Assembly: GCA_026396275.1 (NCBI GenBank)
Contig: JAPLXC010000019.1
Coordinates: 355-64,354 of the forward strand
Direction: 5' to 3'
DNA length: 64,000 nt
Origin: Candidatus Moraniibacteriota bacterium
Lineage (GTDB): Bacteria > Patescibacteriota > Minisyncoccia > Moranbacterales > JAPLXC01
In this document: positions 14,454 to 55,295 of the stretch, in pieces
Numbering within the stretch: position 1 is the stretch's first letter
How the letters are laid out: the number at the start of each line of letters is the position of its first letter
The notes under the pieces: generated by a model
Databases searched by the model: none
Told to the model about the DNA's origin: nothing
What the model saw: only the letters and a program-made list of their open reading frames with translations
Translations under genes and position numbers: made by a program

Positions 14454-14511
14454 TGTCATCCCGAACTTAATTCAGGATCTAATTAGATTCCGGATCGAGT
14501 CCGGAATGACA
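14454..14511. mobile_element. MITE-like hairpin element family A (TGTCATCC...GATTCCGGATCGAGTCCGGAATGACA), copy 1, in the secA 5' UTR
   Basis: Terminal inverted ends TGTCAT/ATGACA with two internal stem-loops. Related copies at 19262, 46473, 52606, 54436 and 55265. Confidence 0.75.
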
Positions 14512-14520
14512 AATTTCATT

Positions 14521-17187
14521 ATGTCCCTATTTAAAAAAGTTTTTGGCTCTAATGAAAGAGAACTGAAAAAACTTCGGCCGCTAGTGGAAAAAATCAACGT
14601 GCTGGAGCCGGCTGTTAGCAAGCTTTCCGACGAAGAGCTGAAAAATAAAACAACTGAATTTAAAGAACGTTTAAATCCGCCAGCCAGTGGAGGCGAGGCG
14701 CTGGATGATTTGATTCCCGAGGCCTTTGCGGTAGTTCGTGAAGCCGCCAAACGTGTTATTGGCGAGCGGCATTTTGACGTGCAACTTATGGGCGGAATTG
14801 TGCTTCATCAAGGAAAAATCGCCGAGATGAAAACCGGTGAAGGAAAAACACTAGTATCAACGCTTTCGACATATTTAAACGCGCTTACCGGAAAGGGAGT
14901 GCATATCGTGACAGTCAATGATTATCTGGCCAAGCGTGACTGCAATTGGATGGGAGCAATATATCACGCTCTGGGAATTTCCACCGCCTGCATCGTTCAT
15001 GACACCTCTTATCTTTATGAACCAAAAATTGTTGATGCCGATGAAGTAAGCGTGGAAATGGAAAACCTCAAACCCGTTTCGCGCCGCGAGGCCTACAGTG
15101 CCGATGTTACTTACGGAACCAATAATGAATTCGGTTTTGACTATCTTCGCGACAATATGGTTCCGGGTTTAGATCAAATGACCCAGAGAGAATTAAGCTA
15201 CGCTATTGTGGATGAAGTGGATTCTATTTTAATTGACGAAGCGCGTACTCCTCTTATTATTTCCGCTCCCGACACGGAATCCACTAAGCTCTATCGTGAA
15301 TTCGCGCGAATCGTTCCGCGGCTGAAAGTCAAAGATGACTACGAAGTGGATGAAAAAATGAAAGCGGTAACTCTCACTGAAAAAGGCATTACTAAAGTAG
15401 AAGAACTGCTGGGAATCGGAAATATTTACGAGCCGGGAAAAATAACTTATGTTCATCATCTGGAGCAGTCGCTAAAAGCCAATGTTATTTTCAAACTTGA
15501 CCGCGATTACGTTGTGAAAGACGGGCAGGTGATTATCGTTGACGATTTCACGGGGCGCTTGATGCATGGCCGCCGCTACTCCGAAGGACTTCATCAGGCC
15601 ATTGAGGCCAAAGAAGGAGTAGAGGTGCAAAAAGAATCGCGCACCTTGGCCACCATTACTTTTCAAAATTATTTCCGGATGTATGGAAAACTAGCGGGAA
15701 TGACCGGAACAGCGGTAACCAGTGCGGAGGAGTTTTCCAAAGTGTACAAACTGGAGGTGATGGAAGTTCCAACCAACAAGCCAATGATCCGCAAGGATTT
15801 TCCTGACGTTGTGTACAAAAGCGAAGAGGGCAAATTCAAGGCGATTGTTGAGAAAATAAGGGAACTTCATCAGGCCGGCCAGCCGGTGCTGGTGGGAACC
15901 ATCGCCATTGAAAAATCAGAGTATTTGAGCGAACTTCTTTCCCGGGAGGGAATTACGCATGAGGTTTTAAACGCCAAGCACCATGAAAAAGAAGCTAATA
16001 TTGTGGCCAAAGCAGGGCAAAAAGGAGCAGTAACTATCGCCACTAACATGGCTGGGCGGGGTACTGATATTAAACTGGGAGAAGGCGTAAGAGAACTGGG
16101 CGGACTTTGCATAATTGGAACCGAACGCCATGAAGCCCGCCGGATTGATAACCAGTTGCGGGGACGCGCTGGCCGCCAAGGCGATCTGGGCGCGTCTCAA
16201 TTTTACGCTTCGCTCGAAGATGAATTGATGCGCCGATTTGGCGGTGATAAGCTGCACAATATGATGAATACCCTAGGACTACCCGAAGATCAGCCGATTC
16301 AGAACGCCATTATTTCCAAATCAATCGAAAGTGCGCAGTCAAAAATAGAAGGATTTAACTTTGATATCCGCAAACACGTTTTGGATTATGACGATGTGAT
16401 GAATAAGCAGCGCGAAGTTGTCTACAAAAAGCGACGCCAGATTCTTGAACTGGAGGAAACAAAAAACGAAATTTTCAACTTTCTTTCGGAGGAGCTGGAA
16501 AAAATTGTTTCCCTCTATTGTACCAAAGAGGATTACCAATGGAATACCGAAGGCATTATTGCGGAAGTCAGCACAATTTTTCCTCTTAACGGCGATGATA
16601 AAAAACAATTAGATATAATCCGGGACGATAAGTCAAAAGACGATGCCGAAAAAATCAATTCCCTGATTGAATATCTTTTAGGACAGGCGAAGAAAGTTTA
16701 CAATCAAAAAGAGAAGGAAATTGGAGAAGAAACAATGCGCCAGGTTGAGAAAATGATAATTCTCCAAACAATCGACATGCTTTGGATGAACCATCTGGAC
16801 GAGATTGATTATCTGCGCCAAGGGATAGGACTGCGCGGTTACGGCCAGAGAGATCCTTTGATTGAGTACAAAAGGGAAGCGTTCAATATGTTTTCCCACT
16901 TAATGGATAATGTCCGGTCCACCATTGTGCGGACAATATTCAGAATTAGCCCGGTCCGGCGGGAAGGCGAGCAGCGTGAATTAACGGAGCGGCAGAACTT
17001 ACAGTTTAAGGGAGCAAATGATGCGGTAGAACAGTTTGGAGCGGCTAAGGAAATGCAGTCCTCTTCAGGCGGGGAAGCAAAAAGTGAAGCCAAACAGAAG
17101 CCAATTATAAATAAAAACAAAGTGGGCCGCAACGATCCCTGCCCGTGCGGGAGTGGCAAAAAGTATAAGAAGTGTTGTGGAGCGTAG
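14521..17187 (+). CDS. secA: Preprotein translocase ATPase SecA (start revised to [18 protein letters not shown])
   Basis: DEAD-like motor motifs and a C-terminal zinc finger [14 protein letters not shown]. The ATG listed at 14506 lies inside the MITE-like element. Confidence 0.9.
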
Positions 17188-17197
17188 GGATAGAAAT

Positions 17198-18136
17198 ATG
17201 GCATACAATCCAGAAAAACCATATAAAAATCAAATTTTAGGGCTGATTAAGAAAACCTGGCATACGCCCTATGTTTCTGTCCAGGAAGGAACATACACGG
17301 TGTTTAAGAGAAAATTTGATTATTCTGAAATCGATCATACCGATGGGATAGGTACGAAAGGAATTTACCACTGGGGTAGACGCACTTTTCGGAACGCAGT
17401 TTTAGACGCCTTAGCGATGAATTTGAATGATTTAGCAATGGCGAGGGCGATCCCATATAAACTTCAATGTCATCTTATTGTGCCAAAAGATGATAACAGA
17501 GCAATATTAGAGATTATGAAGAATCTGGTAGCGGAGTGCAAAAAACGCAATATTGTGATTACCGGCGGGGAAACGTCTATTCAGAATAATATACAAGGTC
17601 TTGACATCAGTCTGACAGTTAGTGGTTTTGTAAAAAGCGAGAAGCAAAATCAGTTTCGGGTTGGTGATGTATTGGTAGGCTTGGCAAGTAATGGAGTGCA
17701 TTCAAACGGTTTTACAACGGTACGAAAGACGCTAGGTAACAGATTTTCCGAAGCATTCACAGAGCCAACAAAGATATATATAGAAATGCTACAAGCCATT
17801 CAGGAAAAGTACGTTGTTCATGGCATGATGCATATAACAGGCGGTGCTTTCACAAAGCTGAAAAGTTTGCTTTCTAAAGCCGATGCGATTATTACGAAAA
17901 ATCATTCATTGAAACCTCAAGCTATATTCAGGAAGCTATATACACACGGGATCACAGATAAAGATATGTACAGGACTTTCAACTGTGGAATAGGGTTTGT
18001 GTTGTCAACCCCCAAAGATGACGCATTAAAAGTTGTTTCCGGAATAAAAGGCGCAGATATAATCGGAAAGGTAATACCAGGGACGGGCAAGGTGAGAATT
18101 ACCTCAATTTTTAGCGGTAAAGAGATAAAACTTTAA
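17198..18136 (+). CDS. AIR synthase-related protein (PurM-like)
   Basis: DGIGTK motif and NLNDLAMARA...ITGGETS PurM-family N-domain. Start chosen at MAYNPEKPY; the listed 17153 start overlaps the secA end. Confidence 0.6.
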   Translation: MAYNPEKPYKNQILGLIKKTWHTPYVSVQEGTYTVFKRKFDYSEIDHTDGIGTKGIYHWGRRTFRNAVLDALAMNLNDLAMARAIPYKLQCHLIVPKDDNRAILEIMKNLVAECKKRNIVITGGETSIQNNIQGLDISLTVSGFVKSEKQNQFRVGDVLVGLASNGVHSNGFTTVRKTLGNRFSEAFTEPTKIYIEMLQAIQEKYVVHGMMHITGGAFTKLKSLLSKADAIITKNHSLKPQAIFRKLYTHGITDKDMYRTFNCGIGFVLSTPKDDALKVVSGIKGADIIGKVIPGTGKVRITSIFSGKEIKL

Positions 18137-18142
18137 GAGAAT

Positions 18143-18187
18143 TACTGCGGGAGCGGTAAGAAGTATAAGAAGTGCTGCGGAAAATAA
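18143..18187 (+). pseudogene. Duplicated secA 3' fragment (encodes [14 protein letters not shown]), in frame directly after the purM-like stop
   Basis: Matches secA 17140-17187 ([15 protein letters not shown]) apart from synonymous changes. Confidence 0.7.
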
Positions 18188-18196
18188 AGTGTAGTT

Positions 18197-18664
18197 ATGA
18201 AGATTATCCAAACAGTTGCAATAATCCAAAAAGGAGATGAAATTCTTCTCGGCATGAAAAAGCGCGGTTTTGGAGCTGGAAGATGGAATGGTTTTGGCGG
18301 GAAATTAAAAGAAAATGAAAATGTAATTCAAGCAGCGCAAAGGGAGCTTAAAGAGGAAACCGGGATTGATACAGAAAATTTAATTGAAATGGGCATTATT
18401 GAATTTGAATTTAAGAGGAATCCTGATATCCTTGAAGTTCATTTTTTAAAAGGAACAGATTTTTCCGGAGCGCTGGTAGAAACAGAAGAAATGAAACCCG
18501 CTTGGTTTAAAATTAATGAAATCCCCTACGACTCAATGTGGCCGGATGATAAATTCTGGCTGCCGCTGTTTCTGGAAGGAAAAAAATTTTGCGGTAAATT
18601 CTTATTTGATAATTATAATAAAATCATTAAACATAAACTTGAGATCGTAGATAAGTTACAATAG
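18197..18664 (+). CDS. NUDIX hydrolase (MutT-like)
   Basis: Nudix box GGKLKENENVIQAAQRELKEETGI. Confidence 0.8.
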   Translation: MKIIQTVAIIQKGDEILLGMKKRGFGAGRWNGFGGKLKENENVIQAAQRELKEETGIDTENLIEMGIIEFEFKRNPDILEVHFLKGTDFSGALVETEEMKPAWFKINEIPYDSMWPDDKFWLPLFLEGKKFCGKFLFDNYNKIIKHKLEIVDKLQ

Positions 18665-18757
18665 CTGTTTCCATATATCAATATATGAAAAGACAATACC
18701 GCATTCTAGTATACGGTATGATGGACAAGTAAGGAATAAAGGGTAAAAAAGAAAAGC

Positions 18758-19240
18758 ATGAAACCAAAATTTTCCTTTGAAAAATCAGTCGGTGGAGTAA
18801 TATTTTTTCAGGAGGAAAACACTATAAAATATCTTCTTCTCCATTATGAGTCAGGCCATTGGGATTTTCCTAAGGGCCATGTTGAAAAAGGAGAAAGTGA
18901 TGGAGAAACGCTGAAAAGGGAAATTCAGGAGGAAACCGGGATTACTGGCGTTGGGATTATCCCGGGATTTAAAAAACAGATTAGATATTTTTACCGGGCC
19001 GGCAAGGAAGAAAAAGAAAAAAGGATAAAAGAGGGCATTGGCACAAGCATTATCAAAAGGGTAATATACTACCTTGCCGAAACCAAAACCAAAGAAGTAA
19101 AAATTTCTTTTGAGCATATCGGCTTTGAGTGGCTGGCATACGACAACGCGTTAGAGAGAATTACCTACAAAAATTCAAAAGAAGTTTTAAAAGAAGCTAA
19201 TGATTTTTTGATAAATAATAAGCAGTTGAGCATTCTATAA
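18758..19240 (+). CDS. NUDIX hydrolase
   Basis: Nudix box PKGHVEKGESDGETLKREIQEETGI. Confidence 0.8.
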   Translation: MKPKFSFEKSVGGVIFFQEENTIKYLLLHYESGHWDFPKGHVEKGESDGETLKREIQEETGITGVGIIPGFKKQIRYFYRAGKEEKEKRIKEGIGTSIIKRVIYYLAETKTKEVKISFEHIGFEWLAYDNALERITYKNSKEVLKEANDFLINNKQLSIL

Positions 19241-19261
19241 ACTTAAAAATTGCACATCAAA

Positions 19262-19331
19262 TGTCATTCCTGCCTCTGAGCCGGAATCCAGAACAAATTT
19301 TTCTAGATTCCGCATCAAGTGCGGAATGACA
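19262..19331. mobile_element. MITE-like element family A copy 2
   Basis: TGTCATTCCTGCC...GATTCCGCATCAAGTGCGGAATGACA. Relative to copy 1, one stem base pair has a compensatory change (GG/CC to GC/GC). Confidence 0.75.
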
Positions 19332-19345
19332 TTAAAAAACCCCCC

Positions 19346-19579
19346 ATGACTTACAAAGGCGGAGAATATTCATTCAATGAATTATTAAAAGAGCTGAAAC
19401 AGCGGGCTAAAAAAGAATTGATACAATCCGACTACGAGTACCTGGAGTTAATTGACGGACTAATCGAAGAAAAGAAAAGCCAGGGTTATTTTTCGGAAGA
19501 CGAGGATATGGAGCAACTCAAAAGCGATCTGGAAATTATGTGGCCGGAAGTGGAAAAATATTTGCAGGATGAAAAATAG
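19346..19579 (+). CDS. Hypothetical small acidic protein (start revised to MTYKGGEYSF)
   Basis: The listed ORF start at 19319 lies inside the MITE-like element. Confidence 0.4.
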   Translation: MTYKGGEYSFNELLKELKQRAKKELIQSDYEYLELIDGLIEEKKSQGYFSEDEDMEQLKSDLEIMWPEVEKYLQDEK

Positions 19580-19636
19580 TTTTAATAGTCAGGCCATTCT
19601 TGATAAATTATTTAAGCCGGGATATTATATTAAAAG

Positions 19637-21346
19637 ATGAATATCAGGAAAAAAATCAAGATTAAATTTGCAGGAGTTTTATTTCTTGGCATAATTGCCG
19701 GGCTGATTTCGTATCCTCAAGCAATGAAATTCGCGCCGCCGTTTTATAATGCGCTTAATAAACTTAAGATAAATTTAGGCCTGGATCTTCAGGGCGGAAT
19801 ACATTTGGAATATAAAGCCGATGTTTCCAATGTTGAAAAAAGCAAAGTTAACGATGCTCTTCAGGGGGCGCAGGACGTGATTGAGCGACGCATTAATGCT
19901 TTTGGCGTCGGCGAACCGTTAGTGCAAACAGCGCAATCAGGAGGAGAACGTCGGATTGTTGTAGAACTGCCCGGAGTGAAAGACATTGAAGAGGCAAAAA
20001 AAAGAATAAAAGACACGCCTTTTTTGGAATTTAAAGAAGAGACCAGTCCCGAGGAATTGGCCAAAACCCAGGAATTATTCAATTCCTTGAATGAGCAGAC
20101 AAAAAAACAGGCAGAGGATATCCTTCAGCGCGCGCTGGCCAGTGAAAATCTTGAGGACTTGGCAAAGCAGTACAGTCAGGATCCCGGCTCTAAGGACCAG
20201 GGTGGTGATCTGGGTTTTGTGAAGAAAGGGATTTTTGTTCCTGAATTTAACAAAATTTTATTTGAAGAAAATTTAAAGCCGGGCGAAATTTACCCCAAGC
20301 TGGTTGAATCCCAATTCGGCTGGCATATTATTAAATTTATTGAATCGCGCGGGGAAGGGGATAATCTGGAGGTGCATAGCCAGCATATTCTTTTTGCCAA
20401 GCAGTCGGCGGAGATGGTTCCTGATTTGAAATATAAATCAACCGGGCTTTCAGGAAAAAATCTCAAAAGTGCCGCGGTGACCTTTACCAGCCAGGGCTTG
20501 AGTGAGCCGCAGGTTTCCCTGAAATTCGACGCAGAAGGGACAAAACTTTTCGCGGAACTTACTAAAAAAAATCTGGGGAAAACCATCGCTATTTATCTTG
20601 ATGGCACAGTTATTAGTGCCCCAGTGGTCCAGGCGGAAATCGCCAATGGTGAAGCTGTTATCACGGGAGATTTTTCCCAGGAGGAAGCAAAAGAATTGGC
20701 TCAACGTCTCAATGAAGGAGCGCTTCCGGTACCACTCACGTTAGTCGGCCAGCAAAGCGTGGAAGCGTCACTGGGAGCCGAATCTCTGAAAAAAAGTTTT
20801 GTGGCTGGCCTGGTGGGACTGGCGGCGGTGATGATCTTTATGATTTTTTATTACCGGTTCCTGGGAGTGGTGGCAGTGATAGCTCTTCTTATTTACACCT
20901 GCATAATGGTTTCCATCGTAAAATTATCCGGAACTTTCACTCCCTGGCCGATTACTCTTACCCTTTCCGGAATCGCCGGCTTTATTCTTTCCATCGGAAT
21001 GGCGGTTGATGCCAATATCCTGATATTTGAAAGAACTAAAGAAGAAATCCGAAGGGGGAGAGGCATTATGAACGCACTGGACGAAGGATTTAAGCGCGCC
21101 TGGACGTCCATCCGCGACGGCAATGTTTCTTCCATTATTACCTCTTTCATTTTAATTATGATGGGAACCGGCTTTGTTAAGGGATTCGCCGTGATGCTGA
21201 TTGTCGGAGTGCTGATTTCGATGTTCACGGCAGTGACGATTTCAAGAACGTTGCTTAGGGTTTTGGTGGGAGAGTGGATAATGGATAAGCTGTGGATGAT
21301 GGGGATTTCTGAAAAATCAAAAATCAAAAATCAAAATGAAAAATGA
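19637..21346 (+). CDS. secD: Protein translocase subunit SecD with an inserted parvulin-like (PpiC-type PPIase) segment
   Basis: SecD TM core. Periplasmic region contains [37 protein letters not shown]...[18 protein letters not shown]...HSQHILF. C-terminal KSKIKNQ heptamer insert. Confidence 0.85.
21311..21340. repeat. (AAAATCA)x3 heptamer repeat in frame at the secD 3' end
   Basis: Read directly. An inverted partner ttttgatatttgattttttatttttgatat lies at about 21385-21415. Confidence 0.85.
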
Positions 21347-21412
21347 CAAGGTAAAAATGATAATCGCAGTGCGATACAATAATTTTGATATTTGATTTTT
21401 TATTTTTGATAT

Positions 21413-25192: not shown

Positions 25193-25275
25193 CTTTACAA
25201 ATTACTAATTTAATACGAATATACTAATCATTTCTTAAAAATTCGTATATTAGTAAATAATTCGTAATTAGTAAA
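25193..25275. repeat. Intergenic repeat family B copy 2 (rearranged)
   Basis: Shares tctttac...tacgaatata...attcgtatattagtaaataattcgtaattagtaaag with copies 1 and 3. Confidence 0.65.
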
Positions 25276-25283
25276 GAATTGTC

Positions 25284-27359
25284 ATGAAATTTTCATATAA
25301 TTGGTTGAAAGAATTAAGCGGAACGAAAAAGTCGCCAAAAGAATTGGCGGAGCTTTTGACAATGCGTTCATTTGAGGTTGAAGGAATTGAAAAAGCAAAA
25401 AGCGATAATGTTTTGGATATTAAAATACTGGCTGATCGGGGACATGATTGTTTAAGTCATATAGGAATTGCCAGGGAAATTACAGCACTCGAAGGAAAAA
25501 AATTTGTCTTACATTACGGAAAATCAAAAATCAAAAATCAAAAATCAAAAATTGTTAAGATAGATATTCAAGACAAGAAATTATGTCCTCGCTATATCGG
25601 CGCGGTAATGACGAATATAAAAATAGGGCCGTCGCCAAAATGGATGCAGGAACGATTAATTACTGGAGGATTAAGGCCGATAAACAATATAGTTGACGCA
25701 ACCAATTATGTAATGCTGGAAACGGGACAGCCACTGCACGCATTCGATGCGGACAAAATCAAAGATCAAAAATCAAAAATCAAAATTATAATAAGGAAAG
25801 CGAAAAAAGGGGAGAAAATTAAATTGTTGGATGAAACGGAAAAAGTTTTAGCAGACGATGATCTAGTAATTGCTGATTCTCAAAAAGCCCTGGCTATTGC
25901 CGGGATTAAGGGCGGGGTGGAGGCGGAAATTGGCGAGAACACCCAAACGATCGTGCTGGAAGCGGCAAATTTCAATCCGACGGCCATTCGCAAAAGCCGG
26001 ATTCGTCTGGGACTAAAAACCGATGCCTCCGACCGGTTTGAAAAAGAAATTGATCCCAATCTTGCGGAAATCGCAATGGCAAGAGTTGTCTGGATAATTG
26101 AGGAATTTGGCGGAAAAACGGAAGGAATGTTTGATGTTTATCCTTCCAAGGTGAATTCTTGGAAAATCAAGTTGGACCTGAATTATGTTAATAAACTTCT
26201 TGGAGAAAATATACCAGTCAAGGCGGTTACAAAAATATTAAAATCGCTCGGATTGCTGGTTACTGGTTACGGATCACAAGTTACGGTTACGGTTCCGACG
26301 TTCAGGATTGATTTAAAAACCCAGGAAGATCTGGTTGAAGAAATCGGAAGAATTTACGGATATGAGAAAATTAAGCCGCAAGCCCCTCACGCTCCGATTC
26401 AGGCGGCGGAGGTGAACGAGCAAAGGTTATTTGAGAGGGAGGTCAAAAATATTCTTGCGGGCAAAGGATTTTCGGAAGTGTATAATTATTCCTTCTACAG
26501 CGCGCGCGACGCGGGACTGGCCGGGCTGGGAGCGATCGAGCATCTGGAACTGGAAAATCCGATGAATCCCGATCAAGCGTTGATGCGGGTGAGCTTGATT
26601 CCTGGAATTTTGAAAAATATTAATCATAATCTGAAATATTTTGACGATTTTCGAATTTTTGAAATTGGGCGCGTATATTGGACAAATAAAACAATATTAC
26701 CTGAAGAAAAAAATATGCTGGCGGGAGCGATTGTTATGGAAGAAAGCAGCAAGAAGGAAGCATTAAGCGGAGTTGAAAAAGCAAAAGGATTTTATGAATT
26801 AAAAAGTTATGCAGATGTATTGCTAAGCAGGATAGGAATTGATGATTATTATTTTGACACTTTTGACGCGGTGCCAAATGATTCATTTTCAACGCTCTGG
26901 CACGAGGGAAGGACAGCGGAAATAAAAATAGAAGGTCATGAAAAAGCCATTGGATTTTTGGGAGAAATAAATCCTTTTTTACTGGCCAATTTTGATATTC
27001 ACAAAAGAGTGGCGTGTTTCGAATTTGATCTGGAAAAGTTGCAGGAAATATCCCAGTCGGAAAGAGAATATCAGCCGGTCAGGAAATATCCGGAAGTTAT
27101 CCGCGATATATCCATGATCGCCCGGAGCAATGTACTGGTAGACGAAATTCTAGCTGCTATTCAAAAAGCTGGAGGAAATTTAGTTCTAGATGTTGACCTC
27201 TTTGACATTTTCGATTTTGCCGACAGCACATCCAGCTACGCTTTTCACATTATCTTCGGTGCGGAAAACCGGACGCTCAAAAGCGGGGAAGTGGATGAAT
27301 TGATGAAAAAAATAAGTTCTGTGCTGGAAAAAGATTTAAAGGTTAAGGTAAGGAAATAA
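25284..27359 (+). CDS. pheT: Phenylalanyl-tRNA synthetase beta subunit, with two in-frame heptamer inserts
   Basis: MKFSYNWLKEL N-terminus plus the B3/4 and B5 domains. Inserts [12 protein letters not shown] and KIKDQKSKIKI. Confidence 0.9.
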   Translation: MKFSYNWLKELSGTKKSPKELAELLTMRSFEVEGIEKAKSDNVLDIKILADRGHDCLSHIGIAREITALEGKKFVLHYGKSKIKNQKSKIVKIDIQDKKLCPRYIGAVMTNIKIGPSPKWMQERLITGGLRPINNIVDATNYVMLETGQPLHAFDADKIKDQKSKIKIIIRKAKKGEKIKLLDETEKVLADDDLVIADSQKALAIAGIKGGVEAEIGENTQTIVLEAANFNPTAIRKSRIRLGLKTDASDRFEKEIDPNLAEIAMARVVWIIEEFGGKTEGMFDVYPSKVNSWKIKLDLNYVNKLLGENIPVKAVTKILKSLGLLVTGYGSQVTVTVPTFRIDLKTQEDLVEEIGRIYGYEKIKPQAPHAPIQAAEVNEQRLFEREVKNILAGKGFSEVYNYSFYSARDAGLAGLGAIEHLELENPMNPDQALMRVSLIPGILKNINHNLKYFDDFRIFEIGRVYWTNKTILPEEKNMLAGAIVMEESSKKEALSGVEKAKGFYELKSYADVLLSRIGIDDYYFDTFDAVPNDSFSTLWHEGRTAEIKIEGHEKAIGFLGEINPFLLANFDIHKRVACFEFDLEKLQEISQSEREYQPVRKYPEVIRDISMIARSNVLVDEILAAIQKAGGNLVLDVDLFDIFDFADSTSSYAFHIIFGAENRTLKSGEVDELMKKISSVLEKDLKVKVRK
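25521..25549. repeat. (AAAATCA)x3 in frame inside pheT
   Basis: Read directly. Confidence 0.85.
25756..25786. repeat. (AAAATCA)-type heptamer repeat in frame inside pheT, second site
   Basis: Sequence reads aaaatcaaagatcaaaaatcaaaaatcaaaat. Confidence 0.85.
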
Positions 27360-27476: not shown

Positions 27477-27477
27477 T

Positions 27478-35392: not shown

Positions 35393-37336
35393 ATGACCGC
35401 TCAAGAATTACGGCAGAAATTTCTGGACTTTTTTAAGTCGAAGGAGCACGCTATTATTCCTTCGGCGTCTTTAATTCCGCGCGAAACCGACCCGACAGTG
35501 CTTTTTACCACGGCTGGAATGCACCCGCTAGTGCCATATCTTCTGGGGGAAGACCATCCCGGCGGCCGGCGCGTCGCTAACGTGCAAAAATGCATTCGTA
35601 CGGTGGATATTGAAGAAGTAGGGGATAATCGCCACCTTACCTTTTTTGAGATGCTGGGAAACTGGAGTTTTGGCGACCCTGCCTCGCCCGACGGCATTGG
35701 CGGGGCGGGCTATTTTAAGCGCGAGGCGATTGAGTGGAGCTGGGAATTTTTAACTGGCAAAAAATGGCTTGAATTGGATCCGAAAAGAATTTATGTGACA
35801 GTTTTTCAGGAAGAACAGGGGATACCTAGAGACGAAGAGTCAATTATGATTTGGCAGGAAGTGTTGGCTAAAGCCGGAATTTCCAGCAGCGTTGCCGGCG
35901 AAAATTCAATCATCAAAGACGATATCAGAATCATTTCACTGGGAACGGACGACAATTTCTGGATTGCAAGCGCCACTGGTCCCTGCGGTCCGGACACGGA
36001 AATGTTTTATGACACGCGCCCGGCAGATGGCCCAATAAATGATACTTTTGAGAACCTGGTTAATTCCGGCCGCCTGATTGAAATGTGGAACGATGTTTTT
36101 ATGGAGTTTAATAAAACCACCGATGGAAAGTATGAAAAGTTGAAGCAGAAAAATGTGGATACGGGAATGGGAGTGGAACGGACACTGGCGGTGCTTAACG
36201 GAAAAGAAACCGTCTTTGACACGGAATTGTTTGAACCGATTTTCAAGAAAATAAAAAACGTCATCCCGGACTCGATCCGGGATCCAGAAATGGATTCCCG
36301 CCTTCGCGGGAACGACAATGATGATCAGAAAAGCTATAGAATTATCGCTGATCATATAAAAGCTGCTGTTTTTATTCTGGCTGATAGCGTTGTTCCTTCC
36401 AATGTTTTGCAGGGCTACGTCTTGCGCCGCTTAATTCGCCGGGCGATCAGGCACGGAAAAATCATCGGGATTCAGAATAATTTTACCCGGGCAATCGCGA
36501 AAGTGGTGATTGAAACGTACGAAGATTTTTATCCGGAAGTAGGGGAGAATAAAAATAGGATTTTGGAGGAGCTGGAAAAGGAGGAGGATAAATTTAGAAA
36601 AACGTTGGAGAAAGGATTAAAAGAACTTGATTTGTTACTTAAGATTGACCAAGCTATGCCATTTTCTGTTGCTACTTCTAAATCTGGATGGGTGAGCGGA
36701 GAAGAAGCGTTTAATTTATATCAATCTTATGGTTTTCCGTTGGAATTGTTTTTTGAAGAATTGGACAGAAGAAATATCATGTATGATAAAAACAGTATAA
36801 ACAGAGATTTTAATAAAAGATTTATAAAACACCAAAAATTGTCAGAAACAGCGGCGGCCGGGCAATTTAAAGGCGGACTGGCGCAAGTAAGCGAAGAGAC
36901 AGCCCGGCTCCATACGGCCACCCATTTGCTTTTGGCGGCTCTGCGAAACGTTTTAGGGCCGCATGTTTATCAAAAGGGTTCAAATATCACTGCCGAACGG
37001 CTGCGATTTGATTTTTCTCATCCTCAAAAAATGACTTCCGAGGAAATTAAAAAAGTGGAAAGAATTGTGAATGATTATATTGAAAGAAATCTTCCCGTCG
37101 TTGCGGAAGAAATGAGTATTGAAGAAGCCAAAAAGATCGGAGCAATGGGGGTCTTTGATGCCAAATACGGGGAGAAAGTCAGGGTTTACACGATAGGGGA
37201 AAAGATGTTTCCCATAAGCATTGAGATCTGCGGCGGACCGCATGCTAATTCTACCGGAGAACTGGGACATTTCAGAATCGTCAAAGAAGAGGCTTCTTCG
37301 GCGGGAGTGAGAAGAATTAAAGCAATTTTAGAGTAG
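35393..37336 (+). CDS. alaS: Alanyl-tRNA synthetase, short form (catalytic, tRNA-recognition and editing domains; no C-Ala domain)
   Basis: PSASLIP..DPT.LFT.AGM and FEMLGNWSFGDY class II motifs. Editing-domain HTATHLL...H motif present. Confidence 0.85.
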   Translation: MTAQELRQKFLDFFKSKEHAIIPSASLIPRETDPTVLFTTAGMHPLVPYLLGEDHPGGRRVANVQKCIRTVDIEEVGDNRHLTFFEMLGNWSFGDPASPDGIGGAGYFKREAIEWSWEFLTGKKWLELDPKRIYVTVFQEEQGIPRDEESIMIWQEVLAKAGISSSVAGENSIIKDDIRIISLGTDDNFWIASATGPCGPDTEMFYDTRPADGPINDTFENLVNSGRLIEMWNDVFMEFNKTTDGKYEKLKQKNVDTGMGVERTLAVLNGKETVFDTELFEPIFKKIKNVIPDSIRDPEMDSRLRGNDNDDQKSYRIIADHIKAAVFILADSVVPSNVLQGYVLRRLIRRAIRHGKIIGIQNNFTRAIAKVVIETYEDFYPEVGENKNRILEELEKEEDKFRKTLEKGLKELDLLLKIDQAMPFSVATSKSGWVSGEEAFNLYQSYGFPLELFFEELDRRNIMYDKNSINRDFNKRFIKHQKLSETAAAGQFKGGLAQVSEETARLHTATHLLLAALRNVLGPHVYQKGSNITAERLRFDFSHPQKMTSEEIKKVERIVNDYIERNLPVVAEEMSIEEAKKIGAMGVFDAKYGEKVRVYTIGEKMFPISIEICGGPHANSTGELGHFRIVKEEASSAGVRRIKAILE

Positions 37337-42139: not shown

Positions 42140-42233
42140 ATTTGTAAATTTTGAATTTGGGATTTTGGATTTGATTTGTCATTTGACATTGGGATTTTGA
42201 ATTTCCGAAGCAGAACTTCGGTTCCTCCCTCTA

Positions 42234-42270
42234 CTTGTTACGTAACTTGTTAAGTAACTTGTTACGTAAC
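42234..42270. promoter_or_regulatory. Three tandem 12-mers CTTGTTACGTAA / CTTGTTAAGTAA / CTTGTTACGTAA upstream of the sipW operon; candidate operator array
   Basis: Read directly. The TTACGTAA palindromic core also occurs at 2209 and, as AATTACGTAATT, at about 59497. Confidence 0.45.
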
Positions 42271-42284
42271 AAAAAGAGATCGGA

Positions 42285-42860: not shown

Positions 42861-43089
42861 TCTAGTTGGATTTCTCTATAATAAGCAGTAAATCTTTTAA
42901 ACCCTCCTCCTTGGGGGATCGCCCTCCTTTTTATAGAGGGCTTAAATCATCGGCTGCCTATTTAAAAAGCCAACGGGCGCGCGCTATCCGAAAATAGCAA
43001 GCACCAGTCGGCTTTCTAAAAATGAATTACTTCTTTGTAGCCAAAGAATATCCATAAATCACCCGTATTTAACTTGTCCCCCACCACTT

Positions 43090-43344
43090 TTATTCTAAAC
43101 TTTTCTTTATTCTTTTTTTTAATTCTTGCAGGCCTCTCGCGTTCTTCTTTAATTTGCTTTCTCTTCTGAAAGCGTCTTCTTTTGAGTAAAACGCTTCGTA
43201 ATATCTGACTTCCCATGGTCCTCTAAATCGGGTAAATACTGATTTGTTTTGGTTATGCTTGTTTACTCTTTCTTTTAGATTGTTCGTGCAACCAATATAT
43301 ATCCCGCTATCCCTCCGGCTTTTAATAATATAAACGTAATACAT
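43090..43344 (-). CDS. GIY-YIG nuclease-domain protein (small standalone)
   Basis: YVYIIKSRRDSGIYIGCTNNLKERVNKH. Confidence 0.7.
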   Translation of the reverse strand: MYYVYIIKSRRDSGIYIGCTNNLKERVNKHNQNKSVFTRFRGPWEVRYYEAFYSKEDAFRRESKLKKNARGLQELKKRIKKSLE

Positions 43345-43595
43345 AGAATAAAAGTGGTGGGGGATAAAAACAAAACCGGCCTAAACCAACAAGCGCAGCA
43401 CTTATTAATTCAGGCCGGTTTCGCTATTTTGCTCCCCGCGCTTCACTGGCGACCAATGGTATCTTTCGTCACGAGAGTTTCTGGCGCGGATCCACGCTTT
43501 CCCGAACGGTTTTGTTTTTTTGTTTTCCTTTGTTATCTTATGCTACTATAGCGCCAGTTGAATATTCTGTCAACGAAATTATCCACAGTTTTTGG

Positions 43596-45988: not shown

Positions 45989-46204
45989 TTAAAATAGAGC
46001 ATAATCTTCAAAAGTACTTCTTTCGGGACGGGGGATTTCGTCAACAGGAGTGTTCACAATAGTGAAAGACCGACAGTTAAATCCCTGGGGGTATAATCGG
46101 TAACAATCATCGCAAGTGATACCACATTGAAGAAGAGTTGGTTTCTGAATCATCTGCAACGACATTCCCATCTTTTGGATGTTAGGACTTTTTTGCGAGC
46201 TCAT
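45989..46204 (-). CDS. Hypothetical Cys-containing small protein
   Basis: 71-aa ORF. Possibly a fragment of a CxxC-rich protein. Confidence 0.3.
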   Translation of the reverse strand: MSSQKSPNIQKMGMSLQMIQKPTLLQCGITCDDCYRLYPQGFNCRSFTIVNTPVDEIPRPERSTFEDYALF

Positions 46205-46437
46205 AGTCCCTCCTTTTCCAAAAGCGATTTTATGAGGTCATACGGTACCATCTCTTCGCAAAATATGCCGTGGATTATTATTCTCCTTTCATAGAGGCTG
46301 TTTTTCCCAAAACATACTCCTACGCATTTTTTACCGCAGTATCCGCTTACTTTCATAAGAGAAACATCATCTGGGATCATGACCCCTTGATCTTTTAGAT
46401 CCCTCCTTACTATTGCTTCATATCCCGGTAATGGCAT
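46201..46437 (-). CDS. Hypothetical small protein with a CGKKCVGVCFG motif; start trimmed to exclude the MITE-like sequence
   Basis: The listed ORF start at 46515 runs through MITE-like copy 46473-46500. Confidence 0.3.
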   Translation of the reverse strand: MPLPGYEAIVRRDLKDQGVMIPDDVSLMKVSGYCGKKCVGVCFGKNSLYERRIIIHGIFCEEMVPYDLIKSLLEKEGL

Positions 46438-46472
46438 TTTTCTACCTCCTCTTTTTTTATAATATTTTTTAC

Positions 46473-46500
46473 TGTCATCCTGAACGCAGTGAAGGATCCT
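46473..46500. mobile_element. MITE-like element family A, partial copy (TGTCATCCTGAACGCAGTGAAGGATCC)
   Basis: Matches the left half of copy 54436. Confidence 0.55.
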
Positions 46501-46577
46501 TGAATAATACAGCAAGTGATATTTAGGACGGGATTCTTCGCTTTGCTCAGAATGACTTTATTTTAACGAACTCACCA

Positions 46578-48660: not shown

Positions 48661-48917
48661 AAGTGAACTTAGTATACAATAGCAATGATAAAAATCAACC
48701 TTGCATTATGCGCAGTTTGTGCAGTATTTATTGACTTTTATAAGTCAGCTTGAAATTAAAGTTCTCCTAAATTTAACTTTAGGATTTATATAACACTTTT
48801 AATATTTGACAAGTTATATAAAGTATGATTGAATAGGATGCCACAGTACATTAAAAGCAAATTTAGCAGAAAGGTTCCGCTTTGCGGAATTAAAAAAAGA
48901 AAAATAGGAGGATAAAG

Positions 48918-49508: not shown

Positions 49509-49624
49509 TAGTAAAAGCAGGTTTGCGCCGAGTCGCGAACCTGCTTTTCAATTACTTTGAAAATCTCCTAAAGTTCAACTTTAAATGAAAAAGAGTGAGC
49601 GCTGTTAAGATCTGCTCACTCTTT

Positions 49625-50107: not shown

Positions 50108-50152
50108 AACGTCCTTATTTTTTTTGAAAAGATCTAAAAGCAGTGGCGGTTT

Positions 50153-51577: not shown

Positions 51578-51664
51578 TTAGCTTTATTAGCTTTATTAGC
51601 TTTATTAGCTTGTTAGCGAAAGTTAATCTAATAAAGCTAACCAAGCTGAAAGCTAAGAAGCTAA
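51578..51664 (-). promoter_or_regulatory. cysS 5' leader built from (TAGCTTTAT)x3 plus an inverted partner, forming a long hairpin; closely related to the dnaK leader
   Basis: The reverse complement ends ...ttaactttcgctaacaagctaataaagctaataaagctaataaagctaaATG. Compare the dnaK leader ...ttaactttgaagctaatcaaactaacaaagctaatgaagctaataaagctATG. Confidence 0.6.
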
Positions 51665-52573
51665 TTATAGCCATTTTCGCAGTTTGAAAATCGTAATTGT
51701 GAGAAAAGAAATAAAAAGCATAATGGAGGTATGGATCCAGAAGCCGTAGGGATTTTTTCCGAAAGGGATATCAGCGCTCATTGCCAGGATATTAGAGTAC
51801 ACCGTCATTGGAAGCATTATGGCGGAGAAAATAGTGAGCACTTTCATGGTGAGATCGAGTTTGTTGGAAAGCAGTGAATTGTTCGTTTCTTCGAGCGATT
51901 CTATGGTTTCTTTCTTACTTTCCAGGTCGTTCCAAATCCGGGTGTTAGTGCCGATAAGATCATAAAAATAGGGCTTTAATTCTTTAGGGATAAGAGGAGA
52001 GTCCTTTTGAACAAGGGATTCCAAAATTGACCGCTGGGGCTTGAGCGTTCTTCTGAAATTGAGAATATCTCTTTTAACTACCGATATTTCAAAAACCATT
52101 TCTTTTTCTTTTCCGGCGAAAACGTCTTTTTCAATACGATCGAGATTTTCAGAAATGTGATCGAGCCGGGGAAAGCAGGATTCAAAAAGAAGCTCAAGAA
52201 GATTGTAGAGCAGATGAGCCGGGGTCTTGTCCATATAAAGGCGCCGTTTCCCCTCGCTTTCGGAAAGGGTGTCAAAAAAGTCGCTCAACTGGTAGATGTT
52301 GTTGGCATGCCCGGTGATTAAACAATTTTTCGTAATCACAATGTCCAGTTCTTCCGGATAAGTGGTTCTGGACGCAACGTCAAAAAGGGGAAGATGGACA
52401 GTAAGAAAAAGGCAGTTGTCGTACTGGGTCGCTTTGGGGCGGAAGGTAGGCGTGGTGAATTCCTCAATGGCCAAAGGATGAATGTTAAAGTTTTCCTGGA
52501 GATACAAAATATCATCCGCCGAGGGATTTTCAAAATCAATCCAGGTTATATCTTTGAATTTTACTGACTTCAT
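51665..52573 (-). CDS. CorA-family divalent cation transporter-like protein with a degenerate GMN motif (AMS)
   Basis: CorA-like soluble domain and 2 C-terminal TM helices. LPMTVYSNILAMSADIPF occupies the position of YGMNF. Confidence 0.65.
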   Translation of the reverse strand: MKSVKFKDITWIDFENPSADDILYLQENFNIHPLAIEEFTTPTFRPKATQYDNCLFLTVHLPLFDVASRTTYPEELDIVITKNCLITGHANNIYQLSDFFDTLSESEGKRRLYMDKTPAHLLYNLLELLFESCFPRLDHISENLDRIEKDVFAGKEKEMVFEISVVKRDILNFRRTLKPQRSILESLVQKDSPLIPKELKPYFYDLIGTNTRIWNDLESKKETIESLEETNNSLLSNKLDLTMKVLTIFSAIMLPMTVYSNILAMSADIPFGKNPYGFWIHTSIMLFISFLTITIFKLRKWL

Positions 52574-52605
52574 GGCATGTTAAGTTTTATTTTTATGTCA
52601 TTCCC

Positions 52606-52690
52606 GCGAAACTTGTCCTCGAGAAATCGGGGAGCGGGAATCCAGAAAACTTTTTTCTTTACTGGATTCCGCATCAAGTGCGGAATGACA
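52606..52690. mobile_element. MITE-like element family A copy 3 (long loop variant), in the divergent corA/yidD spacer
   Basis: TGTCATTCCCGC...GCGGGAATCCAGAAAAC...GATTCCGCATCAAGTGCGGAATGACA. Confidence 0.75.
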
Positions 52691-52745
52691 TTAAGTTTAT
52701 CATACACCATTTTCTGCCTTGACGGAAGGGCGATAAACTGGTAGA

Positions 52746-52991
52746 GTGTTGATAATGTTTAAAAAAGCATCGTTGTTGTTAATTCGGCTGTATCAGAGAA
52801 CATTATCGTTAGATCATGGTCTATTGTCCTATGTCTATTCCGAGCGATGGTGTCGGTTTCATCCGACCTGTTCGCAGTACACCTACGAAGCGATTGATAA
52901 ATTTGGAATAGTAAAAGGCGTGTGGCTCGGAATTAGAAGAATAGTAAGATGTCATCCCTGGAACGATGGAGGGTACGACCCGGTTCCATAG
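52746..52991 (+). CDS. yidD: Membrane protein insertion efficiency factor YidD
   Basis: [18 protein letters not shown]. Confidence 0.8.
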
Positions 52992-53056
52992 CAACCATAA
53001 AGTTTCATAAATTTTATAGCTATTTGAAAATTCAGCTCTAAAGGAAGGAGATTTTA

Positions 53057-53242
53057 ATGAATGGATTATATGAAGCACCAAACTGCGAGCTGTTACTGAC
53101 AGAAATTTTCGGGGTAAAAGTTGAAGTTCCTGGCACGGCTTGCAACCCGAGATGTCAGAAAGAAATGTGTTCCAAGGTAAACCAAGTTTGCGGGGTTTGC
53201 CCGTGTTTGGCTTACTGTGTTCAGGAAGGATTAATAGAATAA
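53057..53242 (+). CDS. Small Cys-rich peptide (8 Cys in the C-terminal 35 aa)
   Basis: Strong RBS AAGGAAGGAG. CNPRCQKEMCSKVNQVCGVCPCLAYC. Confidence 0.45.
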   Translation: MNGLYEAPNCELLLTEIFGVKVEVPGTACNPRCQKEMCSKVNQVCGVCPCLAYCVQEGLIE

Positions 53243-53266
53243 AACATAGCAAAAAAGGAGGAGAGT

Positions 53267-53563
53267 ATGAGAGATATTTTTGGGGGTTTTAAACCGACAG
53301 AAAGGGAAGAAACCAAGGGAAAAAATTTAGGAATAGAAATTGTTGATTACAGCAAATGGGCCGGGGCCGGCAGGGGAAAAGGCAGCGACTACCCGGCTGG
53401 CAAGAGTATTCACTCTGATGAGATGGGATTCATTTCTTATTGCCGTGTGGTTAGTGAATTCAAAAAGGACAAGGATGCGAGAGAAATTAATAATTCAGCC
53501 TCGTCGGAAACTAAAGAAGAGATCTGTTCGAAAATATGCAAACTCAACTGCTTCTTAAATTAA
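53267..53563 (+). CDS. Small protein with a Gly-rich core and a Cys-rich C-terminus (ICSKICKLNCF)
   Basis: Strong RBS AAAGGAGGAG. Confidence 0.4.
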   Translation: MRDIFGGFKPTEREETKGKNLGIEIVDYSKWAGAGRGKGSDYPAGKSIHSDEMGFISYCRVVSEFKKDKDAREINNSASSETKEEICSKICKLNCFLN

Positions 53564-53687
53564 GGAATTAGTTATTTTTACACCGCTTAGCGCTAATGGC
53601 TAAGCGGTATTGTTTTTCTGGAGTGCTTTTTCATTTTGCAAAAAATATGGTAGAATAAATTAGCAGGTAATAATTAAAACAAACCAA

Positions 53688-54287
53688 ATGAAGAAAATTG
53701 CCGTTTTTGCGCTGGTAGTAGGATTGTCAATCTTTGTCGCCGGATGCAAAAAAACAAACCAAAATGATAACCAGGACCAGGGAGCAATACAGAAACAGGA
53801 AAAAGGCGGTGTTGTCAGTTCTATTAAGGACGCGATGGGTCTGGGCAAAAAAGTGAAATGCACGTATCGTTACGCAATTGCCGGACAAACAGATGAATCA
53901 GTAGTGTATATTGAAGGAAAAAAATACAAATCAAGCTATGAGATAGAAGGCCAGAAAACCAACAATTTTTTTGACGGAGAAATAAGCTACACCTGGACTG
54001 AAGGACAAAAGACCGGGACGAAAATTTCCATGGCCTGTCTTAAGGAAATCGGGGACTCATATAAAAGCGAAGAAAAGAACACTGGCCAAAATCAGAACCA
54101 ATTAAAAGCCGGGCAAGAAGCGTTTGAAAACGCGGTTGACACAAAATGCGAACCAACTAATGAGGATATTTCACTTCCCATTGACATAACTTTTACTGAC
54201 CAGTGCGATCAAATGAAAGGGCAGATACAATCAATGCAGGAAATGATGAAAAAATATCAGAATATGGGACAGGGTGCCGGACAATAA
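53688..54287 (+). CDS. Hypothetical lipoprotein (lipobox FVAGC)
   Basis: Signal peptide plus lipobox. Gln/Asn-rich. Confidence 0.55.
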   Translation: MKKIAVFALVVGLSIFVAGCKKTNQNDNQDQGAIQKQEKGGVVSSIKDAMGLGKKVKCTYRYAIAGQTDESVVYIEGKKYKSSYEIEGQKTNNFFDGEISYTWTEGQKTGTKISMACLKEIGDSYKSEEKNTGQNQNQLKAGQEAFENAVDTKCEPTNEDISLPIDITFTDQCDQMKGQIQSMQEMMKKYQNMGQGAGQ

Positions 54288-54306
54288 AAAATCCTTGATT
54301 TGCCAA

Positions 54307-54331
54307 GAGCCCGCAAAAACGGGCTCTTTTG
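54307..54331 (+). terminator. Rho-independent terminator (GAGCCCG-caaaaa-CGGGCTC followed by TTTTG)
   Basis: 7-bp stem plus a T-run. Confidence 0.75.
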
Positions 54332-54342
54332 TATTGAAATAT

Positions 54343-54401
54343 TGACCCATTTTCAGAGTAGTATATAATCACAATTAGCACTCGGACTTGACGACTGCTA
54401 A
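54343..54401 (+). promoter_or_regulatory. hrcA promoter (TTGACC ... TATAAT) overlapping a CIRCE operator TTAGCACTC-N9-GACTGCTAA
   Basis: CIRCE consensus is TTAGCACTC-N9-GAGTGCTAA; this copy has one mismatch. It spans 54375-54401. Confidence 0.8.
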
Positions 54402-54435
54402 TGGAAGGTTTATAATGGAAATATAAAGTTAAGAA

Positions 54436-54504
54436 TGTCATCCTGAACTTGTTTCAGGATCTAATGATATCGGATTAGATTCCGGATCAAGTCCGGAATG
54501 ACAA
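54436..54504. mobile_element. MITE-like element family A copy 4, in the hrcA 5' UTR
   Basis: TGTCATCCTGAA-cttgtt-TCAGGATC...GATTCCGGATCAAGTCCGGAATGACA. Confidence 0.75.
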
Positions 54505-54511
54505 GCCAAAA

Positions 54512-55255
54512 ATGAACACTCGTCAGAAAAAAATTCTATCCGCCGTCATTGAGGAATATACCAATACTGCTATTCCGGTGGCTTCGGAATTATTGGTAAA
54601 AAAATATAATGTCAAAATGAGCCCGGCGACGATTAGAAATGATATGAATGAACTGGAAAAAGACGACTTGCTCTATCAGCCGCATATCAGCGCCGGAAGA
54701 ATTCCCACCGATAAGGGCTATCGCTATTTCGTGGAGGAGATAATGAAGGACCGCGAGCTTTCCAAAGAGGATCAAAATAAATTACAGAGAGAATTACTGA
54801 AGCTTAAGGGTCAAAATAAAAGGATCACCAAGACCACAGCGAAATTACTTTCTATTCTAAGCGGAAATTTAGCGGTAAGCGGACTTTTGAAAAAAGAAGA
54901 ATTTTCCGAATTCGGGATGTTGGAACTGCTGGCTGAACCGGAATTTAAAAAACTGGATGAGGTCTGCCGTCTGGTTGAAGTGATGGATTCTATTGACGAG
55001 AATGTTGATAAATTAACCAGGGGTTTGAGAATAGGGGAGACAAAAATTTTCATCGGCAAAGAAAATCCGCTGGCAAAAATGCCCAACTGCGCGATGATGG
55101 TGTCGCCCTATAAATTAAAAACCGGAGAAAAAGGAGTGCTGGCTCTCATTGGCCCTAAAAGGATGGAATACGCCAAAAATAAGTCGCTAATTGAGTATAT
55201 GAAGAAGTTGTTGAGTTCGGCGGTAGTAGTAATATTAGTGGTAAATTTATTGTAA
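54512..55255 (+). CDS. hrcA: Heat-inducible transcription repressor HrcA (short form)
   Basis: N-terminal wHTH ILSAVIEEYTNTAIPVASELL and GRIPTDKGYRYFV. Confidence 0.85.
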   Translation: MNTRQKKILSAVIEEYTNTAIPVASELLVKKYNVKMSPATIRNDMNELEKDDLLYQPHISAGRIPTDKGYRYFVEEIMKDRELSKEDQNKLQRELLKLKGQNKRITKTTAKLLSILSGNLAVSGLLKKEEFSEFGMLELLAEPEFKKLDEVCRLVEVMDSIDENVDKLTRGLRIGETKIFIGKENPLAKMPNCAMMVSPYKLKTGEKGVLALIGPKRMEYAKNKSLIEYMKKLLSSAVVVILVVNLL

Positions 55256-55264
55256 TAAAATGTT

Positions 55265-55295
55265 ATTCCGGGCTTGACCCGGAATCCAGAAAAAT
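55265..55295. mobile_element. MITE-like element family A, partial copy (ATTCCGGGCTTGACCCGGAATCCAGAAAAAT)
   Basis: Shares CCGGAATCCAGAAAA with copies 2 and 3. Confidence 0.5.

Follow-up and report, generated by a model that had tools for sequence, protein, structure and literature searches.

The window analysed here, a 64,000-nt stretch of contig JAPLXC010000019.1 of Candidatus Moraniibacteriota bacterium (assembly GCA_026396275.1), carries a family of short structured repeats that are probably inverted doublets of DNA hairpin units of the NTS/SRM type (SRM, Ssn-related motifs), acting at the level of DNA; selfish or domesticated DNA is more likely than gene-regulating RNA. The finding is ordinary in kind and the class is already known. 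Unreported for this class are the four-segment doublet, the presence in the Candidate Phyla Radiation (CPR), a recurrent in-frame site in alaS, the spacing close to promoters and the nesting of a nuclease gene inside a covarying hairpin.

Units and doublets in the window

Unit: about 28 nt; YGTC is followed by a stem of 8 bp with A-T and T-A as closing pairs, by a 4–5-nt loop (CTTGA, CTCGA or GNRA-like GAAA/GAAG) and by ATC(C/T)A(G/A). Doublet: two units, inverted and facing each other; 58–95 nt in the window. The outer flanks (YGTC/GACR) are complementary, as are the inner tails (CCAG/CTGG or CTAA/TTAG), and the module, with its four complementary segments (outer flanks, two hairpins, inner tails), can therefore fold as a four-arm junction. 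As DNA the doublets fold into three hairpins closed by a terminal stem or into one long imperfect hairpin (−9 to −27 kcal/mol; z-scores −1.7 to −7.2).

The family was first proposed in a sequence-only reading from its TGTCATYCC ends, and it is real: 8 occurrences were counted on both strands against 0.75 expected, 0 of 100 shuffles reached 8, and a chance origin of the repeats is thereby ruled out. The terminal inverted ends and the two hairpins per element were likewise borne out. A covariance model made from units of the family and applied to the window with its filters switched off returned 10 units at E ≤ 0.012: C1, C2 and C4 with both halves, C3 with its right half, the unit at 55261–55289 and two units at 36259–36317. 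The left half of C3 carries a 26-nt loop expansion and escapes the model. The window total is 13 units at 7 sites:

Doublet C1 (14454–14511, + strand): units E = 6.4e-9 and 1.6e-10; left stem ATCCCGAA/TTCAGGAT, mismatched once (C.A, sense strand), right stem ATTCCGGA/TCCGGAAT; begins 20 nt past the −10 of a predicted promoter (TTGACC-17-TATGAT) and ends 9 nt ahead of the secA ATG (14521).

Doublet C2 (19262–19331, + strand): units E = 8.4e-5 and 1.7e-10; 21 nt past the stop of a Nudix-like open reading frame (ORF, 18758–19240) and 14 nt ahead of the ATG at 19346; promoter prediction upstream gave none.

Doublet C3 (52596–52690, + strand): lies where corA(−) and yidD(+) diverge, with the corA start 22 nt away and the predicted yidD promoter downstream of the doublet.

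Doublet C4 (54436–54503, + strand): 19 nt past the −10 of a predicted promoter (TTGACG-17-TATAAT) that overlaps a CIRCE-like operator; ends 8 nt ahead of the hrcA ATG (54512).

Doublet C5 (36259–36317, + strand): in-frame within alaS (35393–37336); encodes VIPDSIRDPEMDSRLRGND.

Doublet C7 (46473–46557, − strand): diverged subtype GTCATTCTGAGCAAAGCGAAGAATC ... GATCCTTCACTGCGTTCAGGATGAC in the leader of a small ORF; weak model match (E = 1.3); 19 nt after a perfect TTGACA-N16-TATAAT promoter, its end 35 nt ahead of the Shine–Dalgarno sequence (SD)/ATG at 46437.

Single unit S6 (55261–55289, + strand): TGTTATTCCGGGCTTGACCCGGAATCCAG; between the hrcA stop and grpE; E = 1.6e-8; terminator-like score on the minus strand.

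The earlier count of six copies in 64 kb (four full, two partial) thus becomes six doublets and one singlet. The four full copies (C1–C4) stand where they had been placed, and C5 and C7 are two further full copies. One of the two partial copies is the genuine single unit S6; the other, at 52950, is a chance match, because it lies inside conserved coding sequence for the YidD C-terminus (Pfam PF01809, E = 4e-28) and was missed by the model. Assembly artefact is ruled out, the unit being present in isolate genomes and in-frame within genes, and a terminator reading is ruled out for the doublets, which are devoid of T-tracts and lie downstream of promoters.

On the minus strand the right halves of C1–C4 read as the near-invariant GTCATTCCGSACTYGATSCGGAATC; the stems of the left halves are different ones. 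C1 is a paralogue of C4, with both units in common, four substitutions and a 10-nt spacer indel, and C2 and C3 have the right half plus 4 nt beyond it in common; the doublet, or at least a half with its flank, is therefore the copied unit.

C1, C4 and C7 begin 19–20 nt past the −10 hexamer, at about +13 (gaps 14434–14453, 54417–54435 and 46558–46576); a further case with this spacing was found in a Gammaproteobacteria metagenome-assembled genome (MAG; locus L018). Over all loci, a strong sigma-70-like promoter lies within 90 nt of only 6 of 297 units, three of them at 19–20 nt (C7 is outside this count). The spacing could reflect targeting of single-stranded DNA (ssDNA) near open complexes, or selection on leaders. 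Placement between promoter and start codon, as had been claimed for three genes, holds for secA and hrcA with their predicted sigma-70-like promoters and is not borne out for the 19346 gene, for which none is predicted. Three copies do lie in 5' untranslated regions (5' UTRs), and as a description the suggested concentration near starts is real; a 5' preference is, in this sample, inseparable from a location anywhere intergenic, because the spacers of this compact genome measure 100–220 nt and the elements 58–95 nt.

The conserved right end of the doublets, GGAATGACA, includes an ATG (window 14503–14511 and other doublet ends). At secA this ATG gives an in-frame upstream start at 14506 (MTNFI-) ahead of 14521; the start at 14521 presumably matches the usual SecA N-terminus. 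The ATG in GGAATGACA is a likely source of mis-called starts and junk ORFs (MDSRLRGND; ILHCVQDD, 46201–46515).

Stem covariation and occurrence in other genomes

The sequence-only reading had noticed that the second stem is ATTCCGG/CCGGAAT in some copies and ATTCCGC/GCGGAAT in others. This difference is present, and the preservation of pairing that it implied is very strong across many copies. Covariation set: sequences from the window and from fetched loci were chosen for their flanks alone (YGTCAT and ATCYA around 16 or 17 free bases), and pairs were counted at the six unconstrained stem positions, which avoids circularity; the choice itself fixes G2 T3 C4 A5 T6 and A T C. A, and outside the selected columns the family consensus reads YGTCATTCC...GGAATCYAG. 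5-nt-loop set: 46 distinct sequences; 94.8% of cells paired; 66 double-sided changes against 15.6 in column shuffles (0 of 500 reach 66); 11–48% paired with the partner slid by 1–3 columns. 4-nt-loop set: 35 distinct sequences; 95.0% of cells paired; 37 double-sided changes against 8.1 (0 of 500 reach 37); 16–51% paired on sliding. The stem sequence is thus free to vary provided that Watson–Crick pairing is kept. Only 5 and 6 cells of the two sets are G.U (11 among about 615 paired), and the switches run almost all from one Watson–Crick pair to another; since wobble pairs are nearly absent, pairing in DNA or on both strands fits better than pairing in a single RNA strand.

The exact 25-mer GTCATTCCGSACTYGATSCGGAATC was found in at least 120 stretches of species-representative genomes from more than 15 phyla; among the hosts are Patescibacteria, Ignavibacteria, Dehalococcoidia, Flavobacteriia isolates, Pirellulales, Nitrospirota, Campylobacterota, Sphingomonadales, a Rickettsia MAG (L042) and one Methanosarcinales MAG (L014). 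It also occurs in 16 IMG/VR viral contigs (L129–L144). Among the matches listed, an ATGAC or GTGAC end follows within 140 nt downstream in 97 of 126, the median doublet is 73 nt long, and most partners fold into a unit whose stem differs. Both stems are good in 116 doublets, of which only 2 have one stem sequence in both halves. Covariation is seen between the inner tails (CCAG with CTGG, CTAG with CTAG; odds ratio 21, p = 4e-9) and between the base that precedes GTC and the one that follows GAC (odds ratio 4.2, p = 0.002). The sequence at the two borders is YY|GTC...GAC|RR, with a T-rich, G-poor stretch ahead of each unit. No target-site duplication was found in 114 of the 116; the family had been called MITE-like at first, and a miniature inverted-repeat transposable element (MITE) in the strict sense is not supported. 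In 65 kb of related Moranbacteria DNA, five sites with about 9 units were found: two intergenic doublets, one unit 11 nt before dnaB, and two alaS copies.

Pairing is thus under a very strong constraint; of the two explanations offered for it in the sequence-only reading, DNA hairpins recognised by an enzyme is the better, and selection on RNA in 5' UTRs is not supported. Cis-regulatory RNA, for instance translational or thermosensing hairpins before secA, hrcA and other genes, is an unlikely origin of the repeats. It would agree with the position of C1, C4 and C7 between strong predicted promoters and start codons, 19–20 nt past the −10, with the ends of C1 and C4 at 8–9 nt ahead of starts that have no evident SD, and with the folds of the leader doublets as RNA (−26 to −33 kcal/mol; z-scores −3 to −5.9); the hairpins certainly belong to the three leaders predicted at C1, C4 and C7. 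It is opposed by the range of unrelated contexts in which the unit occurs over more than 15 phyla (in-frame in alaS, ahead of a tRNA, behind genes), by the presence of one unit per strand in every doublet, by the scarcity of G-U pairs, by the C.A mismatch on the sense strand of the C1 left stem and by the small share of units with a strong promoter within 90 nt. Rfam at the gathering threshold gave tRNA-Val only; in E-value mode over C3, C4 and S6 the sole match was a spurious miRNA (E = 0.35). RNA regulation is conceivable for individual copies and cannot explain the family.

In-frame copy in alaS: the peptide VIPDSIRDPEMDSRLRGND of C5 lies in a variable-length linker of alanyl-tRNA synthetase (AlaRS), ahead of the conserved YRIIADH motif; the window AlaRS is 100% identical to a Candidatus Moranbacteria MAG protein, and its next relatives are at most 67% identical. 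The alaS half GTTCCCGCGAAGGCGGGAAT is nearly the Neisseria core. Three further Moranbacteria AlaRS carry doublets at the same site and in the same frame with different stems, and the flanks are all A-rich (AAAAAAY|GTCAT...ATGAC|AA). The four insert-bearing sequences are scattered among insert-free ones in a weakly resolved neighbour-joining tree, and therefore either the site was hit repeatedly or an old insert was lost many times. The copy parallels the Rickettsia palindromic elements (RPE), but nine translated doublet frames gave no NCBIfam match at E ≤ 10, RPE-type domains included. The window AlaRS has a second insert of 11 aa (PASPDGIGGAG; DNA 35678–35710, 33 nt, GC-rich, partly palindromic) that is absent from the other homologues (20 compared); a similar-looking GC-rich stretch lies in SecA at about 14676–14711.

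GIY-YIG nuclease and related repeat systems

Chenal et al. (2025) defined the NTS, CGTCATTCCCGCGMAVGCGGGAATCYRG, and the wider SRM in many phyla, associated with ssnA, a gene for a 94-aa single-domain GIY-YIG protein (CDD cd10448); SsnA binds the hairpin and cuts upstream of it, in ssDNA only and not in dsDNA, RNA or the opposite strand, and the NTS-ssnA-NTS arrangement was likened to an insertion sequence, with a parallel drawn to REP/RAYT (PMC11893778). The window consensus TGTCATTCCGGACTTGATCCGGAATCYAG has both oriented flanks in common with the NTS. Further likenesses are the oriented hairpin of about 28–30 nt with 5' (C/T)GTCAT and 3' ATCYRG flanks around a variable stem, the many, mostly intergenic copies across phyla, a small single-domain GIY-YIG gene in the genome, and the unit-gene-unit layout, here in relatives of the window GIY-YIG. 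The window units differ in a stem shorter by one base, a loop that is usually CTTGA, and their almost constant arrangement as inverted doublets with complementary flanks; the host belongs to Patescibacteria, a group unmentioned in PMC11893778; in place of two hairpins, a single long inverted repeat encloses the window GIY-YIG; and one copy is in-frame in an essential gene, whereas only 2% of N. meningitidis NTS are intragenic.

The features of the candidate partner are as follows.

GIY-YIG ORF (43090–43344, − strand): single-domain nuclease of 84 aa (PF01541, E = 3.8e-17).

Upstream arm of the bracket (43350–43365, − strand): ATCCCCCACCACTTTT; just before the GIY-YIG ATG.

Downstream arm of the bracket (43077–43091, − strand): AAAAGTGGTGGGGGA; overlaps the GIY-YIG stop codon.

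In the 84-aa protein the catalytic columns Y5, Y16, R26, H30 and E62 are conserved; no NCBIfam model matches it. Its 63 relatives are nearly all either unnamed or from Moranbacteria/Patescibacteria, and the genes often adjoin a signal-peptidase/LTD/TasA-like cluster, as in the window, or pilus genes. The two arms form a 15-bp inverted repeat that surrounds the ORF from just ahead of the ATG to the stop codon. A metagenome scan gave 80 loci with relatives of the window gene, 79 of them usable for a count of such brackets; an exact inverted repeat of at least 12 bp brackets the ORF in 44 of the 79 (with loci in the ranges L121–L125 and L145–L188). The arms vary by lineage yet stay complementary: ATCCCCCACCACTTTTACTT, ATCCCCCCTCACTTT, ATCCCCTCTCAC, ATCCCACACATAAC, ATCCAGCAC, ATCCCGCACATA. 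Like SRM stems they begin with ATCCC, and the whole resembles one giant unit that has the gene as its loop.

In a Bacteroidales MAG (L038) a GIY-YIG homologue lies exactly between a unit(+) at 5285 and a unit(−) at 5635 (E = 1e-17 to the hidden Markov model (HMM) of the window protein's family; 41% identity and E = 6.5e-10 to the window protein itself). Distant homologues (L194–L223, 35–42% identity) have inverted SRM-like hairpins on both sides: upstream TTC-ATGCTGAA-CTAGT-TTCAGCAT-CTTT, downstream AAG-ATGCTGAA-ACGAG-TTCAGCAT. Given this unit-nuclease-unit layout in relatives, the short doublets look like gene-less derivatives. With the family HMM the gene was found in only 2 of about 136 repeat-centred loci, as is expected for a high-copy repeat and a low-copy gene. 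By homology and architecture the window GIY-YIG is a candidate Ssn-like partner of the repeats.

In L194, L195, L203 and L223 the half-unit GAACTAGTTTCAGCATCTT stands in tandem, up to four times, upstream of the GIY-YIG gene, which points to slippage, or to partial copying that recurred at the hairpin of the nuclease itself. In the window, a sub-threshold match to the c-di-GMP-II-GAG riboswitch aptamer (43405–43510, − strand; 27 bits against a gathering threshold of 40, E = 0.008) lies a short way upstream of the GIY-YIG cassette and of the TasA-like/signal-peptidase/LTD operon, with, by eye, a TTGACA..TATAGT promoter before it and a terminator-like hairpin after it; the arrival of the cassette may have separated a riboswitch from its operon.

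In the sequence-only reading an IS200/IS605 TnpA had been proposed as the cognate enzyme. The corresponding alternative, REP/REPIN-type repeats mobilised by a REP-associated tyrosine transposase (RAYT, IS200/IS605-like Y1 HUH) encoded elsewhere in the genome, is quite improbable. The inverted doublet of palindromic units with a spacer is the definition of a REPIN (PMC3116915, PMC3337134), and 116 tail-facing doublets answer to it; the absence of target-site duplications, a biology centred on ssDNA hairpins, vertical persistence and a proposed single-copy partner enzyme are further points in common with REP/BIME/REPIN elements. No Y1 transposase, RAYT included, was seen among the window ORFs (20 unassigned ones searched against Pfam; the remainder housekeeping by eye). 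The unit head is GTC, whereas REPs associated with RAYT typically have the head GTAG. In L038 and L194–L223 the genes between the inverted units are of the GIY-YIG and not of the Y1 kind, and the sole partner shown by experiment for this sequence class is the GIY-YIG ssDNA nuclease (PMC11893778).

Passive recombination or integration targets, perhaps terminators or protein-binding sites with no dedicated enzyme, are a still more remote explanation. Neisseria dRS3 of the same core has been described as a duplicated target of filamentous prophages and of insertion sequences with IS110-like recombinases, and S6 scores as terminator-like on its minus strand; the window holds no prophage or IS110-type gene, the doublets are without T-tracts and lie downstream of promoters rather than at gene ends, and the conservation of oriented flanks beside freely varying stems would be left unexplained. 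The likeness to dRS3/NIME consists in the core ATTCC(C)...(G)GGAAT and in inverted-repeat pairs that flank a short spacer; NIME spacers are 50–150-bp RS units in arrays, whereas single compact doublets of 58–95 nt are found here. The Neisseria type excepted, the exact unit strings did not occur in the literature text searched. With RPE (PMC10969869) the window family shares a palindromic repeat in-frame in housekeeping proteins, with the peptide in a tolerated loop; RPEs measure about 150 bp and form ten families, and the window doublets match no NCBIfam model of RPE type. Classical MITEs such as Correia are likewise short, non-coding and multi-copy, with terminal inverted repeats and frequent co-transcription with neighbours, and differ in that the window doublets have neither target-site duplications nor a DDE transposase parent.

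Against the assignment to NTS/SRM-type DNA units with an Ssn-like partner the following points weigh. The published SRM string HGTCWYN(0-2)YYVSBRHN(0-5)WNVSBRGN(0-2)RNCYNB matches only 1 of the 13 window units (36259–36287; shuffles 0.09); the others fail at the single 'W' or at the last 'B', because their stem is one base shorter (two units traced by hand). The best solved relatives of the 84-aa protein are UPF0213 proteins (1zg2, E = 3.7e-8; cf. cd10456). The window gene has no flanking canonical units, the nearest copy being 3.1 kb off, and around the approximately 80 GIY-YIG relatives such units are rare (3 in 306 kb); two of these three sites lie immediately upstream of the gene (a doublet at 42 nt in L151, a unit at 81 nt in L184). 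The nuclease alone does not account for insertion, no mobility event was directly seen, and the 19–20-nt spacing of three doublets is unpredicted by a purely selfish-DNA view.

With NTS/SRM-type DNA units as the preferred reading, the doublets would be gene-less derivatives of a unit-nuclease-unit cassette, maintained or spread through recognition of ssDNA hairpins by an Ssn-like nuclease together with host replication or repair. They would survive at places that tolerate an insertion, namely leaders, spacers and a single surface linker of AlaRS; any effects on the secA, hrcA and small-ORF mRNAs, with hairpins 8–35 nt before the starts, would be side effects. On the model of Neisseria, incoming or replicative ssDNA may be what the repeat/nuclease pair acts on.

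Other repeats and significance of the doublets

Three further kinds of repeat were noted in the window. An intergenic repeat of about 85 nt (CTTTACGAATTACGAATTT..GTACGAATATAC ... AATTAGTATATTAGTA..GATTAGTAATTAGTA) has three copies, 13348–13432, 25193–25280 and 61809–61891, just upstream of the 13440 ORF, the 25284 ORF and the dnaJ-like 61897 ORF. Runs of the heptamer AAAAATC / AAAATCA stand at gene ends and in spacers (5193–5232, 5620–5686, 21304–21363, 25504–25577 and 25746–25805). A 12-nt tandem motif, TGTTACGTAACT / TGTTAAGTAACT, in 2–3 repeats at two distant intergenic sites (42224–42272 and 59430–59478), looks like an operator.

It is possible, and here put forward tentatively, that the doublets are the gene-less form of an unrecognised kind of mobile DNA, whose autonomous form would be a gene for a GIY-YIG ssDNA nuclease, flanked by SRM-type hairpins or nested in one. 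It would target transiently single-stranded DNA, need no transposase in order to move and leave no target-site duplication. This would explain insertion 19–20 nt past the −10, at about +13 of open or early-transcribing complexes, and the apparently independent repeated hits at one A-rich alaS site in Moranbacteria; horizontal spread, together with recognition by a conserved nuclease, would then lie behind the near-identical 25-mer in so many bacterial phyla, one archaeal MAG and 16 viral contigs.

The Ssn/SRM repeat system is placed by these data in the CPR, with a site about every 9 kb in a genome that is very small and in which intergenic bases are expensive. Its natural unit is the inverted doublet with four complementary segments, a repeat type that can stand in-frame in an essential aminoacyl-tRNA synthetase and directly ahead of secA and hrcA. 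For annotation, the doublets explain junk peptides of the VIPAKAGIQ, MDSRLRGND and ILRFAQND types, which are common in annotations. If the nuclease link is true, the CPR proteins would add new hairpin specificities to the ssDNA-nuclease toolbox.

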